Shown here: positions 6,958-14,831 of the stretch, in pieces
Layout of the letters: each line of letters begins with the position of its first letter
How positions within the stretch are numbered: the first letter of the stretch is position 1
IMG/VR virus record: IMGVR_UViG_2778261510_000012
Reading direction: 5' to 3' (one strand)
Length of the DNA: 22,380 nt
DNA from: a virus
Lineage: Duplodnaviria > Heunggongvirae > Uroviricota > Caudoviricetes
The notes under the pieces: model-generated
Seen by the model: only the letters and a program-made list of their open reading frames with translations
Told to the model about the DNA's origin: nothing
Database searches by the model: none
Position numbers and translations under genes: made by a program

Positions 6958-7596
6958 TTAAATATCTTGTTGAATTTTAAAGCATACGCCCAATATGCAA
7001 GATAGATCATCCAGCATAATTGAAGGGTAGCGAGGATTTGTGGGGACTAAAAGAATATCCGGCCCTTCTATCTCCAGTTTACGAATGACAGGTGTTGTGG
7101 TCCCTTTGGGTAAGGCAAGGACAATATTTCCTGGTTGTACGGTTCGATCGGGATCAACAAAAACTGTTGAACCATTTGGGATGGAAACTCCCCCACCAGA
7201 TGTTGACATACTGTCACTCTCTAGAACAACTGCAAAGGTATTGGCCGGGATTTCTCCGACAAGCTGCACACAAGAGGTTATTGAGGAATTTTTCATATAA
7301 TCACTCCAGCTTGCTGCCTGCTGAAGTGATAGTAGCGGAACCGTTTTTATCGGCGGTAAAGATAGATCAAGCGAATCACCTGTATTTAACTCTCCTCCAT
7401 TAAGAAGCCAATTTTCGTTTACTTTCAATATCTTTGCCAGTGAACTTATGTAACGCGAGGACGGCGCTCCTCCACCGTTCATCCATTGACTTACGGAGCC
7501 TTTTGATGCGCCAGTGGCATTGACAAGGTCTTTGCCTTTCAGGTTTAGCGCATGCATACGTTGGGTTATGCGTTCAGATATTGTTTGCTTGCTCAT
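6958..7596 (-). CDS. Prophage repressor, CI-like (N-terminal HTH, C-terminal S24 LexA-like peptidase)
   Basis: 212 aa; N-terminal HTH-like segment (QTISERITQRMHALNLKGKDLVNATGASKGSVSQW); C-terminal S24-like Ser (ESDSMS) and Lys (VIRKL); divergent from the cro-like gene; no SD before the ATG, consistent with a leaderless pRM-type transcript. Confidence 0.85.
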   Translation of the reverse strand: MSKQTISERITQRMHALNLKGKDLVNATGASKGSVSQWMNGGGAPSSRYISSLAKILKVNENWLLNGGELNTGDSLDLSLPPIKTVPLLSLQQAASWSDYMKNSSITSCVQLVGEIPANTFAVVLESDSMSTSGGGVSIPNGSTVFVDPDRTVQPGNIVLALPKGTTTPVIRKLEIEGPDILLVPTNPRYPSIMLDDLSCILGVCFKIQQDI

Positions 7597-7687
7597 GTTT
7601 TGATTTTAAAACACAGATGGTTTTGTTTCTTGACTTTCTTTGGTTTTGATTATTAAACTTTTGGCGTTCAGTTTTATGGAGCGACTC
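7597..7687. promoter_or_regulatory. Rightward operator/promoter region (OR, pR-like, pRM-like)
   Basis: Two 16-bp pseudo-palindromes GTTTTGATTTTAAAAC (7597-7612) and GTTTTGATTATTAAAC (7643-7658); TTGACT at 7630-7635 followed 18 bp later by TAAACT as a candidate pR. Confidence 0.5.
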
Positions 7688-7918
7688 ATGAAAAAATCAG
7701 AAGTATTAGGCTATTTTGGCGGAGTTGTTAAAACAGCCGCAGCTCTAGGAACGTCAAAAACCACAGTCAGCATGTGGGGGGAAGAGGTTCCGTGGAAATG
7801 GGCGTTGCTAATTCAGGCAGTCACTGCCGGGGCGCTCAAATATGAGTTACACATACCGACGGTTGTCATTCCCGGTTCTGATCATAATCCGCCTTCTAAC
7901 CAAGGGGGGGATTCATGA
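7688..7918 (+). CDS. Cro-like HTH regulator (DicC/YdaS-like)
   Basis: 76 aa from the ATG at 7688 (GGAG RBS); LGYFGG...KTAAALG...SMW pattern resembles the DicC/YdaS Cro-type proteins; divergent from the repressor. Confidence 0.7.
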   Translation: MKKSEVLGYFGGVVKTAAALGTSKTTVSMWGEEVPWKWALLIQAVTAGALKYELHIPTVVIPGSDHNPPSNQGGDS

Positions 7919-8340
7919 AAATCAAGCATGAACACATCCGCATGGCGATGAATGCCTGGGCGCGTCCTGATGGCGAAAAAGTTCCAGCAGCTGGAATAAC
8001 CCAGGCTTATTTTGAGTTGGGTATGACGTTTCCTGAACTGTATGACGACAGCCATCCGGAAGCCTTGGCTCGCAATACCCAGAAAATTTTCCGCTGGGTA
8101 GAGAAAGACACCCCTGATGCAGTTGAAAAAATTCAGGCGTTGTTACCAGCGATCGAAAAGGCAATGCCACCTTTGCTGGTGGCCAGAATGCGCAGCCACA
8201 GTTCAGCTTATTTTCGGGAGCTGGTGGAGACGCGGGAGCGATTGGTGAGAGACGCTGATGATTTTGTCGCAGTGGCAATCGCCGGTTTCAATCAGATGAA
8301 CCGTGGTGGCCCGGCAGGAAATGCTGTGGCAGTACATTGA
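7915..8340 (+). CDS. YdaT-like protein (CII-like position)
   Basis: 141 aa; N-terminus MKIKHEHI matches the YdaT family as I recall it; ATGA overlap with the cro-like gene. Confidence 0.65.
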   Translation: MKIKHEHIRMAMNAWARPDGEKVPAAGITQAYFELGMTFPELYDDSHPEALARNTQKIFRWVEKDTPDAVEKIQALLPAIEKAMPPLLVARMRSHSSAYFRELVETRERLVRDADDFVAVAIAGFNQMNRGGPAGNAVAVH

Positions 8341-8411
8341 CTGACAATAGCCATATCGAATCGCTTCCGGCAACTCGTGAGTAAAAAGATTCGGTATCAG
8401 AAGAGGTGAGT

Positions 8412-9482
8412 ATGGCTAACGCCTGGCTCAGATTATGGCATGACATGCCAAATGACCCTAAGTGGCGAACAATTGCCAGGGTGTCAGGGCAGCCAATTGC
8501 AACAGTGATGGCAGTGTATATCCACCTCCTGGTGAGCGCGTCACGAAATGTCACGCGAGGTCACATTGATGTCACGACAGAAGATTTGGCAAGTGCGCTC
8601 GACGTGACAGAAGAGGTAATTGATTCAATTTTGCAGACGATGCAGGGGCGGGTACTTGATGGTGATTTAATCACTGGATGGGAAAAACGCCAGGTGCTTA
8701 AAGAGGACAACGGCAATATTTCGCAAACCGCAAAATCTCCTGCAGAGCGCAAGAGGGCGCAGCGAGAGAGGGAAAGAAAGCGGGAACAAAATGGCGATTG
8801 TCACGGCGCGTCACGAAATGTCACGCACATGTCACGACGAGTCACGACAGATAAAGATACAGATAAAGATACAGATCAAGAAGATCAAAACACTATGGTC
8901 CATGGCGTAAAAAACGCCACGAACCAGGCAGGGGATGTTCAGACCGTCAATCTTGGTCAGCCAGCAGGCACGACACCGGAAGCCGATTCAGCGTATGCGC
9001 TGAAAGCCGATTCGGGCGCTGTGCAGCAGGTGATGACCGCAAGGCCGGAGCAATCACACCAACTGCAGCAGCCTGAAGCCGATTCCGCCATTCAGCGGGA
9101 AGCCGATCGGGTAGTCCCGGAAAACACCGGGCAGCCTGTGGGACGAGTAGATTATCCGGATGTGTTCGAACAGGTCTGGCGGGAATACCCGTTGCGTGCT
9201 GGGGCAAACCCGAAGAAATCCGCTTTCAGTGCTTGGAAGGCCAGATTACGCGAGGGGGTGTCACCAGAGGCCATGCTGGATGGCGTGAGGCGTTACGCAA
9301 GATACCTTGCGGCTACCGGGAAAACGGGAACGGAATTTGTTCAGCGAGCGACGACGTTTTTTGGACCGGACCGGAATTTTGAAAACCCCTGGCTGCTCCC
9401 GGTAAGCGGCACGAACAACCAGCGTTGTGTGAATCATATTTCTGAACCGGATACCGAAATTCCACCGGGCTTCAGGGGGTAA
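8412..9482 (+). CDS. Replication initiation protein (phage replisome-organiser N-terminal domain type) with internal iterons
   Basis: First ATG at 8412 with RBS AGAGGTGAG; N-terminus WLRLWHDMPNDPKWRTIA fits the replisome-organiser N-domain pattern; C-terminal FEQVWREYPLRAGANPKKSAFSAWKARL motif common in phage replication initiators; iteron clusters inside the gene. Confidence 0.7.
   Translation: MANAWLRLWHDMPNDPKWRTIARVSGQPIATVMAVYIHLLVSASRNVTRGHIDVTTEDLASALDVTEEVIDSILQTMQGRVLDGDLITGWEKRQVLKEDNGNISQTAKSPAERKRAQRERERKREQNGDCHGASRNVTHMSRRVTTDKDTDKDTDQEDQNTMVHGVKNATNQAGDVQTVNLGQPAGTTPEADSAYALKADSGAVQQVMTARPEQSHQLQQPEADSAIQREADRVVPENTGQPVGRVDYPDVFEQVWREYPLRAGANPKKSAFSAWKARLREGVSPEAMLDGVRRYARYLAATGKTGTEFVQRATTFFGPDRNFENPWLLPVSGTNNQRCVNHISEPDTEIPPGFRG
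8540..8608. repeat. Iteron cluster 1 (GTCACG repeats with helical spacing)
   Basis: GTCACG/GTCACA at 8540, 8550, 8560 and 8571 (spacing 10, 10, 11 bp) plus an inverted CGTGAC at 8603. Confidence 0.55.
8800..8880. repeat. Iteron cluster 2 plus AT-rich tandem repeat (putative origin core)
   Basis: GTCACG at 8800, 8810, 8820, 8831 and 8841 (spacing 10, 10, 11, 10 bp), followed by a tandem GATAAAGATACA x2 A+T-rich stretch (8850-8873). Confidence 0.55.
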
Positions 9483-9522
9483 GTGTTGATTTCTGGTCAT
9501 GAGGTAATTTTCAGGAGGACTT

Positions 9523-9945
9523 GTGGCAAAAGTTTTTACACAAGAAGAGCGAGAAAAAATTAAAGGGCAGGTTGTTGAACTCGTACGCCAGAGTGGGCGT
9601 GAGACGTTACGGCAACTGGAAGTCAAAACAGGTGCGACAAGATATCTGATGAGCGTTCTCGCAAGAGAGCTGGTTGCCAGCGGCGATGTATACAACTCTG
9701 GTTACGGGTTATTCCCGTCTGAACAGGCGCGTAAGGACTGGCAAAATGCCCGTAAAAAGCTCTCAAGGGCAAAGCTGAAGAAACCATCTGCGGTTGATTC
9801 GGACCTTATCTGGTCATTACCTGACGGAGAAATACGTCGCTACGACAGGCGTCAGAACATAATCTGTCGCGAGTGCCGGAAGAGTGAAGTTATGCAGCGC
9901 ATATTGTCGTTTTATCAGGGGGATGTTCGGTATTTATTGAAGTGA
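9523..9945 (+). CDS. Hypothetical 140-aa basic protein downstream of the replication initiator
   Basis: ORF with AGGAGG RBS and apparent GTG start; no recognisable motif; sits where lambdoid phages usually encode a helicase loader but is too small for one. Confidence 0.45.
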   Translation: MAKVFTQEEREKIKGQVVELVRQSGRETLRQLEVKTGATRYLMSVLARELVASGDVYNSGYGLFPSEQARKDWQNARKKLSRAKLKKPSAVDSDLIWSLPDGEIRRYDRRQNIICRECRKSEVMQRILSFYQGDVRYLLK

Positions 9946-10038: not shown

Positions 10039-10091
10039 TTATAGATGGTATATGTAGAAAGTGAACATGCGTAGATTGTATGATTTAGCCG

Positions 10092-10316
10092 TCACTTAAT
10101 TATTGGATAACTCACACAAGTATGACCGTTGCTTATCGCATACATTTGGTTTCCCTTAAGATTTACAAATGGAAATGTCGTATACTCATAATTTATAGAG
10201 GTCATATTAAATGTAAGGAATTTATCTTCAAGTTCTAATTTTGTAGAGTGGGCAGGGTATGTTCCTTCATTTTTCATTGTGATAATAAAACCGATAGGGA
10301 AAAATGTAAAGCACAA
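10092..10316 (-). pseudogene. Probable frameshifted 3' portion of the HNH-like gene
   Basis: A +1-frame ORF overlaps the end of 10274..10900; a single-base insertion in the A5/T5 run at 10300-10304 would fuse both into one ~265-aa frame; the track start is TTG and the first ATG has no SD. Confidence 0.4.
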
Positions 10317-10900
10317 ATAAATGCCACATGTCCTTCGTTCATAAATGCTACACTTTGAGCGGATATGTGCATTCTGTGTGGGTAAAACCAGTAGTAAATA
10401 TCATGAGTTTCCTCAAAACTTGAATTTTTACCCAAAACATAATCCTTTAAAGGTGTATAGAAGGGGCTATCTACGGGTTCTTTTTTACAATCTTCAACTG
10501 AAGTTGCTGATAGCACGTGCCCAATCATAGCCTTAGTGAAAGATATGCTATCAAAAGGTATTCTAATGAATGGATATACATTCATACCATTCATATATCG
10601 CCTTAACTGTTCTTTAAAGGACTTTGTTACATTTTCAATTGCAACATCGAGCCCACCTAATACCTTATTGTTACAGTGGCTGCAAATGGTTCTGAAATAA
10701 GAGCCATTTTTAGCATTTAATGGTTTAACTGGTTCCTGAATACCAAAAAATTCGCTAACTGTTTTCTGCAAAACAGGGCCTAAGGTTATGGCGCACTTTG
10801 GAGGAACATGATCTTTTGTGAGCAAGCCATATTTCCCACAAATATTGCAATAACCTTCAGTAATGCCATTGTGCTTCCATCGTTCACTAATTTTCGTCAT
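10274..10900 (-). CDS. AT-rich cargo gene encoding a protein with an HNH-like Cys/His motif
   Basis: 208 aa; RBS GAGGGA; CNICGKYGLLTKDHVPPK (CxxC-x9-DH) and CSHCNNK motifs resemble the zinc-bound HNH fold with an unusually long spacer; low GC relative to flanks. Confidence 0.6.
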   Translation of the reverse strand: MTKISERWKHNGITEGYCNICGKYGLLTKDHVPPKCAITLGPVLQKTVSEFFGIQEPVKPLNAKNGSYFRTICSHCNNKVLGGLDVAIENVTKSFKEQLRRYMNGMNVYPFIRIPFDSISFTKAMIGHVLSATSVEDCKKEPVDSPFYTPLKDYVLGKNSSFEETHDIYYWFYPHRMHISAQSVAFMNEGHVAFICALHFSLSVLLSQ

Positions 10901-13779: not shown

Positions 13780-14145
13780 ATGACTGAACGCATAGAATTT
13801 GTTTTGCCTTACCCGCCGACGGTGAATACCTACTGGCGACGTCATGGCAATACGTATTTCATCTCGGAAGCCGGAAAGCGTTATCGCCGTGATGTGGCGC
13901 TAATTGTTCGCCAGCAGCGGCTGAAATTAAGCCTGTCCGGAAGGCTGGCGATAAAGATTATTGCAGAGCCACCGGATAAGCGCCGCCGCGACCTGGACAA
14001 TATCCTGAAGGCACCACTGGATGCGCTGACGCATGCCGGACTACTTATAGACGACGAGCAGTTTGATGAAATCAATATTGTGCGCGGTCAGCTCGTTCCT
14101 GGTGGGCGGCTGGGGATAAAAATCACAGAACTGGAGTGCGCATGA
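13780..14145 (+). CDS. rusA: Holliday junction resolvase RusA
   Basis: 121 aa; LPYPPTVNTYWRRHG...RRRDLDNILKAPLDALTHAGLLIDD...GGRLGIKITE aligns by eye with E. coli RusA including the catalytic acidic residues. Confidence 0.9.
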   Translation: MTERIEFVLPYPPTVNTYWRRHGNTYFISEAGKRYRRDVALIVRQQRLKLSLSGRLAIKIIAEPPDKRRRDLDNILKAPLDALTHAGLLIDDEQFDEINIVRGQLVPGGRLGIKITELECA

Positions 14146-14831
14146 ATAACCAGTATTTACAGTTTGTGCGTGAGCAGCTCATTATCGCCACCGCTGATTT
14201 GAGTGGGGCAACAAAAGGTCAGCTTGAAGCCTGGCAAGAGAATGCCATGTTCGATACAGGGCGTTACAGGCGAAAAAAAATCCGGTACCGCGATGAAGTG
14301 ACTGGAAAAATGATAACGCGGGATAATCCACCAATTCCGGGAAAGCAATCGCTGGCGAAGGGGACGTCAATTCCTCTGGTCAGTCCGGTTGAGTTTTCGA
14401 CATCATCGTGGCGGCGGGCTGTTCTGTCTCTTGAAGAACATCATAAAGCCTGGTTGTTGTGGTGTTACAGCGGGAGTATTTGTTGGGAATATCAGATCGC
14501 GATAACACAGTGGGCGTGGAATGAATTTAATACTCAATCCGGTACCAGAAAAATTGCAGGGAAAACGCAGGAACGCCTGAAAAAATTAATCTGGCTGGCG
14601 GCGCAGGCAGTAAAAGCAGAACTTTTTGGTGGGGAAGGTTATGAATACCAGGAGCTGGCATTACTGGCGGGAGTGACAACTAAAAACTGGTCCAAAACAT
14701 TTACTCGTCACTGGGTTGCAATGAAACACATTTTTTACCGACTGGATAGTGGGGCTTTATTGTTTGTAATGAGAACGCGTTCAAAACAAAAGGCGGCATT
14801 TTCAAAGCAAAGTGTTGCAAAAGTAGATTGA
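14142..14831 (+). CDS. Putative late-gene regulator (Q-like antiterminator by position)
   Basis: 229 aa from the ATG overlapping the rusA stop (ATGA); sits immediately upstream of a promoter-like sequence, a short terminated leader and the tRNA/lysis region; family not confirmed. Confidence 0.45.
   Translation: MNNQYLQFVREQLIIATADLSGATKGQLEAWQENAMFDTGRYRRKKIRYRDEVTGKMITRDNPPIPGKQSLAKGTSIPLVSPVEFSTSSWRRAVLSLEEHHKAWLLWCYSGSICWEYQIAITQWAWNEFNTQSGTRKIAGKTQERLKKLIWLAAQAVKAELFGGEGYEYQELALLAGVTTKNWSKTFTRHWVAMKHIFYRLDSGALLFVMRTRSKQKAAFSKQSVAKVD

Follow-up and report, generated by a model that had tools for sequence, protein, structure and literature searches.

Why would the gene of a phage replication initiator carry the same six-nucleotide word in two clusters, roughly one copy per helical turn? 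The question arises in IMG/VR virus record IMGVR_UViG_2778261510_000012, a stretch of 22,380 nucleotides (nt) that we call the window and that is a lambdoid E. coli prophage. Its initiator gene (8412–9482, + strand), encoding 356 amino acids (aa), contains two arrays of the hexamer GTCACG, the second of which abuts an A+T-rich tract. Our comparative analysis points to one answer: positions 8538–8926 are probably the prophage's replication origin, which lies within the gene for its own initiator.

Two phased arrays and an unstable tract

The initiator gene contains two arrays of direct iterons about 260 base pairs (bp) apart. Array 1 (8538–8578, + strand) holds four iterons at 10-, 10- and 11-bp spacing: GTCACG at 8540, 8550 and 8571 and, at 8560, GTCACA, one mismatch away. 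It codes for aa 43–56, the end of one helix (aa 29–45) and the loop preceding the helix-turn-helix. A single inverted copy (8603–8608, − strand; CGTGAC on the + strand) lies 32 bp past the array. Array 2 (8798–8848, + strand), the proposed core origin array, has five direct GTCACG iterons, at 8800, 8810, 8820, 8831 and 8841, and codes for aa 130–146 in a disordered linker; Tandem Repeats Finder reports it as a 10-bp-period array at 8799–8849. An earlier note on this DNA had placed both clusters, their 10–11-bp spacing and their separation correctly, but it counted the 8560 copy as a perfect hexamer and missed the inverted one.

Chance does not account for the arrays. GTCACG occurs 17 times in the window, against 8.45 ± 2.8 expected from dinucleotide shuffles, and nine of these copies fall within 310 bp. 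Two trivial cases aside, the arrays are the only places in 22 kb where a complex hexamer reaches at least three copies in 60 nt, and no further iteron-like cluster was found in the window. Five copies in 60 nt occur once, whereas 20 shuffles together gave a single locus reaching four. Shuffling synonymous codons with the protein held fixed left 1.65 ± 1.02 GTCACG copies, against eight observed, and none of 20,000 shuffles reached eight; codons resampled from the window's own usage gave 0.68 copies. These shuffles and cluster scans rule out a chance origin.

What is conserved is the DNA word and not a peptide, because the hexamer is read in three frames. Its copies begin at codon positions 3, 1, 2 and 1 in array 1 and 2, 3, 1, 3 and 1 in array 2, and are translated as SR, VT or (C/G)H. 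The earlier note had described the repeats as in frame and as giving the initiator repeated SRNVT segments. The peptide is real, since the pair GCGTCACGAAATGTCACGC encodes ASRNVT twice, but single hexamers occupy all three codon positions. The duplication arises because two adjacent iterons recur at an offset of 270 nt, a multiple of three. Selection acts on the repeats as DNA elements, with the repeated peptide as a by-product; the three codon phases and the 10–11-bp spacing rule out an explanation by peptide repetition.

Two other readings of the region were rejected. A DnaA-dependent origin finds no backing, as DnaA-box-like words are present in the window at the expected count (49 against 51.8) and absent from the arrays. 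A structured RNA was dismissed too, with no Rfam match at E ≤ 1 in 8200–9700.

Directly beside array 2 lies the gene's least stable DNA; no unstable DNA adjoins array 1. The A+T-rich, purine-rich tract at 8847–8895 (+ strand), the proposed DNA-unwinding element, begins with the 12-mer ACAGATAAAGAT repeated 2.9 times at 8847–8881 (Tandem Repeats Finder) and continues with the GATC-containing AAGAAGATCAAAACA. The repeat is the one that the earlier note had recognised behind the second cluster and written in another register as GATAAAGATACA. The tract is 71% A+T and 71% purine on the + strand, and GC content falls to its minimum there, at 35%. The gene's least stable 41-nt segment starts at 8850, with a free energy of −44.7 (gene mean −58.7 ± 3.8), and ranks among the least stable 0.7% of the 22-kb window. 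Its minus-strand sequence, GATCTGTATCTTT, is similar to the oriC 13-mer consensus. Two GATC (Dam) sites lie within the proposed unwinding tract, at 8874–8877 and 8883–8886.

An imperfect 13-bp inverted repeat (8896–8926) follows directly after the tract. Folded as a DNA hairpin it has a predicted energy of −8.7 kcal/mol (z −2.69; 3 of 200 shuffles were as good), and it gives a terminator-like match on the − strand. The same positions overlap the coding of a conserved linker peptide, TMVHGxKNAT.

Concerted change among homologues

Across homologues, the two arrays change their core together. Scanning prokaryotes at one genome per species gave 60 loci encoding the N-terminal domain at 35–99% identity, from alpha-, beta- and gamma-proteobacteria, and 56 homologous genes from these were examined; a second search with the N-domain alone brought mostly fragments, its gain being chiefly alignment depth. 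In nearly every gene the commonest hexamer forms two phased clusters, at gene nt ~129–160 and ~360–430, as in the window. The core differs by lineage, being (T)GTCACG(M), GTAACG(C) or CGAACGC, and all 39 genes typed in both arrays have the same core in each (21 GTCACG, 13 CGAACG, 5 GTAACG), with none discordant. Of the 41 homologues with a typable array 2, 39 carry a same-core array 1 at the same gene position. Peculiarities of single genes likewise recur in both of their arrays: in one homologue (L024), each array has overlapping CGTCACGTCACGTCACG plus an inverted GTGAC. A rough neighbour-joining tree of the N-domain, built on only ~86 positions after iteron-encoded residues were left out and not robust, calls for ~12 state changes when loss of typable arrays counts as a state, so the concordance does not come from one or two ancestral events.

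Finer features of the arrays are maintained as well. Many GTCACG-type homologues retain the inverted copy after array 1, at gene nt ~192. Its Asp-Val-Thr codons read GACGTGACA in the window and GACGTTACA in a GTAACG-type homologue (L025), a synonymous change, so the inverted copy co-varies with the iteron of its gene. All 44 typed homologues have more copies of their hexamer than synonymous shuffles do, 29 of them at 0/2,000 and 36 at ≤2/2,000. The 229 spacings between successive cores measured in the family include 145 of 10 bp, 31 of 11 bp and 15 of 20–21 bp. Array 2 has 3–6 phased copies in nearly all homologues, and in 38 of 47 it is followed by a purine tract (AGA[TG]N) that starts YAGATAAAGA or YAGAGAAGAG.

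Variants of the gene include some with altered arrays and some with added nuclease domains. In a 302-aa E. coli variant (P0020) an in-frame deletion takes out most of array 2 and the A+T-rich tract, and two others (P0003, L003) have gained iterons in both arrays; they look like natural origin-defective and origin-expanded alleles. Seven short N-domain homologues (P0155, P0173, P0174, P0186, P0213, P0215, P0225) are fused to HNH endonuclease domains (PF01844/PF14279). Two loci (L044, L055) have an insert with a GIY-YIG-type-like nuclease motif (YVYYV...GISRNPWAR) and ACTACG/CTACGT repeats, without the usual arrays.

The presumed iteron-binding domain is the N-terminal winged helix. An AlphaFold2 model built from a 68-sequence alignment gives a confident domain over aa 1–97 (coding region 8412–8702, + strand), with helices at 3–14, 16–25 and 29–45, a loop at 46–55, helices at 56–63 and 67–77 and a beta wing; its fold is nearest to the DnaD N-terminal domain and RepA_N-type initiators. 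A basic helix, AERKRAQRERERKREQ (aa 110–126; 8739–8789, + strand), is predicted at a pLDDT (predicted local distance difference test) of ~70–78. Beyond it, about 120 residues (aa 127–245) are modelled as disordered, and array 2 and the 12-mer repeat code for aa 130–157 within them. Both arrays, one in a loop and the other in the disordered stretch, thus fall where the protein can accommodate arbitrary sequence.

The basic helix is the candidate specificity element. The winged-helix recognition helix was rejected for this role, as it does not track iteron type across lineages. In ~50 genes the motif class of the basic helix does: RK..QR goes with GTCACG, R...[YF]RE with GTAACG and R[AS][KR].[WH]R with CGAACGC. 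The RK..QR group includes four GTCACG-type homologues (L027, L038, L056, L058) whose winged helix clusters with CGAACG types, and one of these, L038, combines a GTCACG-type helix and array 2 with a winged helix from the other clade and has no array 1. The basic helix may thus determine specificity; its linkage to array 2 is a confound, because the DNA coding for the helix abuts that array.

The N-domain and its arrays travel as one block in recombinants. Partial E. coli matches break at gene nt ~448–476, just past the A+T-rich repeat, and E. coli relatives share either gene nt 1–458 or nt ~448/476–1071. One such relative, L063 (E. coli STEC383; 1501–2995), has the same N-domain and GTCACG arrays, with six and five copies, joined to a PF17948 DnaT-type C-domain, with a short lambda-P-like gene behind it. 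Another, L062:981–2072 (E. coli O157:H7 str. 2149 prophage, NZ_CP017436 3495619–3496710), has the window's C-domain joined to an unrelated N-domain, MRDYAKVSPRFW..., and followed by a DnaC/IstB-like gene. The C-domain of L063 seems to come with a matching type of loader, whereas no loader is apparent in the window phage.

The unrelated N-domain family, found in L062 and also in L064–L143, has two phased arrays of its own. Its word, GAAGGGGCTTC, occurs at gene nt 185/196, within the helix-turn-helix coding region, and again at 440/451/463, in the linker; a purine tract, (GAHCAG)n or (GAACAG)n, follows this second array. Because this N-domain is unrelated to that of the window, the bipartite layout recurs independently.

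The origin reading and its alternatives

Concerted change of the arrays, their excess over shuffles and their travel with the N-domain together indicate DNA sites read by the initiator itself. We propose that the winged-helix domain recognises iterons of consensus (T)GTCACG(A/C), with the basic helix probably taking part, and that the bound subunits would lie on one face of the DNA because the iterons recur once per helical turn. An oligomer on array 2 (8798–8848) would distort and melt the tract at 8847–8895. The weakly DnaT-like C-terminal domain, tethered by the ~120-aa linker, would then engage the opened strands, recruit host DnaB with host DnaC, or both; host DnaC enters the proposal because the phage has no loader or helicase gene. 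Array 1, with its inverted copy (8538–8578 and 8603–8608), would provide auxiliary sites of the same kind that raise local initiator occupancy, loop to array 2 or modulate firing. Initiator binding, tract melting, helicase recruitment and the role of array 1 are all steps that we infer by analogy with lambda (PMC7466680), RepA_N replicons (PMC5703833) and SPP1 G38P (PMC6316719).

Several points weigh against this reading. Three homologues (L038, L052, L057) keep array 2 and lack array 1, eight have only 0–2 degenerate sites, and some relatives may have an arrangement other than two arrays. Inter-array distances range from 168 to 350 bp, with no helical register between the arrays evident. Since the arrays lie inside the N-domain gene, their co-inheritance with the N-domain is expected whatever they do. 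The DnaT-like assignment of the C-domain is weak. Finally, the family has no characterised member in the phage collection or the searchable literature. When 50,697 phage records were searched with the N-domain, every phage that matched was an uncharacterised one (Tritos, Aeromonas pAEv1818, Pseudomonas phi1 and P7869, Ralstonia Firinga and others), and the literature searched, which left out most subscription journals, held no publication on the family, so a prior description is possible.

The strongest alternative leaves array 2 and the tract as the whole origin and makes array 1 a control element. Array 1 might then restrain the initiator by titration or "handcuffing", in the manner of the incA and incC iteron arrays beside P1 repA and F repE, or act as a roadblock that throttles transcription of its own gene and of those downstream, Q included. 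The distribution of the arrays is in keeping with this. Array 1 is not indispensable, because some homologues that keep array 2 lack it; two others (L056, L058) have it displaced to gene nt 87–107. It does not lie beside unstable DNA, and the gene sits in the rightward early operon upstream of Q. Against a control role, negative copy control is of little obvious use to a lytic phage, and many lineages, together with an unrelated family, have retained or regained a second array whose core matches the first, a pattern that fits a positive role at least as well. We give this alternative a real but clearly smaller chance than an origin that spans both arrays. In our main reading, too, array 2 and the tract, being nearly universal, are likely the core origin, and array 1 would be an accessory that is repeatedly kept or re-placed.

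An alternative in which the arrays bind some other factor, and the origin lies elsewhere, is improbable. The factor could be a host protein, a Cro-like, cII/YdaT-like or DUF977 regulator, or part of a partition or packaging system. It gains some room in that initiator binding is itself something we infer, and the neighbouring DUF977 protein weakly matches a PHROG annotated "DNA binding protein". The arrays nevertheless persist in distant hosts with different neighbour genes, and exchange of the C-domain and downstream genes leaves them attached to the N-domain. A conserved host factor is disfavoured because the core differs (GTCACG versus GTAACG) between phages of related enteric hosts. The lack of DnaA-box enrichment and of any other iteron-like cluster in 22 kb tells against this alternative too.

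It is very improbable that the repeats serve the protein, or arose by neutral slippage or duplication, without a DNA function: the ASRNVT duplication, the tolerant segments in which both arrays lie and the in-frame indels by which close relatives differ in copy number would suit such a reading, but the three reading frames, a spacing that is no multiple of three and the excess over synonymous shuffles do not, and neutral slippage would not keep arrays switching core together in 39 of 39 genes from three proteobacterial classes at 35–60% protein identity.

If the element is an origin that uses both arrays, a more specific design can be imagined. Initiators bound to array 1 and array 2 might pair across ~260 bp into one looped bipartite complex that puts torsional stress onto the purine-rich tract, with a basic-helix code in which Q reads GTCACG, Y or F reads GTAACG, and W or H reads CGAACGC. 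Such a design could be general, because an unrelated enterobacterial initiator family evolved the same layout. We offer this fuller picture as speculation and would sooner expect parts of it to fail than the whole to hold.

The origin reading matters because the module is very common and mostly annotated "hypothetical protein". Of 5,426 complete E. coli genomes, 1,647 (~30%) have the gene at full length, and relatives turn up in alpha-, beta- and gamma-proteobacterial prophages. An origin and its recognition word would give a handle for assays of prophage replication, for studies of incompatibility and exclusion, and for origin plasmids. Three iteron dialects and a candidate helix that tracks them amount to a natural experiment in specificity. 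The N-domain and origin block has been swapped between phages that differ in helicase recruitment: a DnaT-like domain with P, the window's C-domain with a DnaC-like protein, or no loader. The arrays are also a case of coding constraint, with sites written into all three frames of the loop and linker of the protein that would read them. Prevalence, the three dialects and the recurrent bipartite layout together make this a good experimental system.

Prophage context and relation to known systems

The gene's identity as a replication initiator, which the earlier note had asserted, is well founded. Its product, from an ATG at 8412 with an alternative GTG at 8406, was taken from the open reading frame list and matches phrog_3729 ("replication initiation protein") over its full length (1–356/356; E = 1e-257). 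Sequence sources name the initiator "phage replisome organizer", and DNA of phage Tritos is 99.7% identical to the gene. No Pfam family matched the full-length protein at E ≤ 0.01. A scan of aa 1–133 at E ≤ 10 gave only HTH_Crp_2 and PF09681 (Phage_rep_org_N; E = 0.009), the latter aligning initiator residues 5–123 with model positions 1–119 of 121 at 16.4 bits, below the cut-off of 23.3. PHROG "replisome organizer" families match the N-terminus at E = 4e-6 and 2e-4. Phage_rep_O was found neither in the full protein (E ≤ 0.01) nor in aa 1–133 (E ≤ 10), and PF06970 (RepA_N) gave no match in the initiator. Membership in the lambda O or RepA_N families was rejected, being without Pfam support; the initiator is at most a distant relative of Phage_rep_org_N.

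The C-terminal domain (aa 246–356; coding region 9147–9482, + strand) presumably contacts single-stranded DNA or recruits the host helicase. The AlphaFold2 model is confident over aa 246–335, with pLDDT of 88–98 over aa 251–330. An alignment profile of the domain searched against the PDB matched DnaT chains (6aep, E = 0.004; 2ru8, 0.08; 9zbt, 0.23), and the last 24 residues matched NCBIfam DnaT at E = 0.0015, with 18 bits against a cut-off of 201. No Pfam family, PF17948 included, matched aa 227–356. A further match is to phrog_1701 ("DnaD-like helicase loader", E = 5e-63).

The initiator gene lies in the rightward early operon of the prophage, after cro and a cII-like gene and upstream of Q. 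The gene order opens with integrase and exonuclease VIII on the − strand, followed by an S24 cI-type repressor (6958–7596, − strand), a P22-Cro-like gene (cro; 7640–7918) and a cII/YdaT-like gene (7915–8340) directly before the initiator. The next gene after it is DUF977/Ren-like (9523–9945). DUF968, RusA and the Q antiterminator (14136–14831) come later. A pR-like promoter consensus match upstream of cro (7630–7659, + strand; TTGACT-18-TAAACT, 9 of 12 matches) is the probable source of transcription across the putative origin. No protein of the P, DnaC or DnaB families was found among the window's larger open reading frames. A 208-aa open reading frame (10274–10900, − strand) without a Pfam match sits in a low-GC island between the replication and Nin-like regions, with a low-GC stretch at 10050–10200; it looks like a moron or defence-type insertion, and phage Tritos has a different gene at that position. 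The exonuclease VIII gene (− strand) contains a 21-bp tandem repeat of four copies (71% match) at 2848–2931.

The closest functional parallel is lambda, whose ori lies inside gene O, with iterons and an AT-rich tract mid-gene; the N-terminal part of the initiator binds the iterons and the tract melts (PMC7466680). The earlier note had drawn this comparison, and the layout bears it out. As in lambda and the Stx phages 933W and P27, direct repeats and then an A+T-rich tract lie mid-gene in linker-coding DNA; the N-domain and iterons form one specificity module separable from the C-domain, and the gene has the same place in the rightward early operon. The differences are equally clear. The initiator has no Phage_rep_O relationship. 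Its cores are 6–7 bp, recur every 10–11 bp and have no internal dyad, whereas lambda has four to six copies of a ~19-bp unit with internal symmetry. The array 260 bp upstream, in the DNA-binding-domain coding region, has no lambda counterpart. In place of a P gene the initiator is followed by the Ren-like DUF977 gene, and its C-domain is weakly DnaT-like.

RepA_N initiators (pSK41 Rep, pTZ2162 RepA, Vibrio PLE RepA) resemble the window protein in their DnaD N-terminal-domain-like winged helix and in having repeats in a linker-coding gene centre. In pSK41 the Rep boxes occupy the middle of rep, where the origin DNA doubles as linker-coding sequence (PMC5703833); exchange of an N-domain/site block is also known for lambdoid O/ori and for the RepA_N chimera pPR9 (PMC5703833). 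The RepA_N family has longer, semi-palindromic iterons with poly-A at the centre (PMC7145576). Unlike these proteins, which are mostly from Firmicutes and for which a second in-gene array is not described, the window initiator does not match PF06970.

Phage "replisome organizer" proteins, among them SPP1 G38P and the Pfam family Phage_rep_org_N, are another parallel. SPP1 G38P binds direct repeats beside an AT-rich element in its own gene (oriL in gene 38) and a separate second set, oriR (PMC6316719). The window shares the two repeat sets and the in-gene repeats by an AT-rich element, and its initiator aligns end to end with PF09681 below threshold. The SPP1 sites are ~13 kb apart, and SPP1 encodes its own loader and helicase (PMC6316719). 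In the window, by contrast, the arrays lie 260 bp apart in one gene and no loader is encoded.

One initiator acting on two separated iteron clusters has precedents in P4 (ori/crr), P1 (incC/incA) and F (ori2/incC), where melting occurs at one cluster and the other serves as a distal enhancer or in copy control through looping or pairing. Those arrays flank the rep gene or lie kilobases off, and their roles are experimentally demonstrated. Both window arrays are inside the initiator gene, with putative roles.

The window element would thus work like lambda ori/O and the RepA_N replicons while belonging to neither family. An in-gene iteron origin as such is no surprise to a specialist. Its distinctive set of features is a weakly DnaT-like C-domain, no encoded loader, very short and tightly phased iterons and an array in the coding region of the DNA-binding domain itself.

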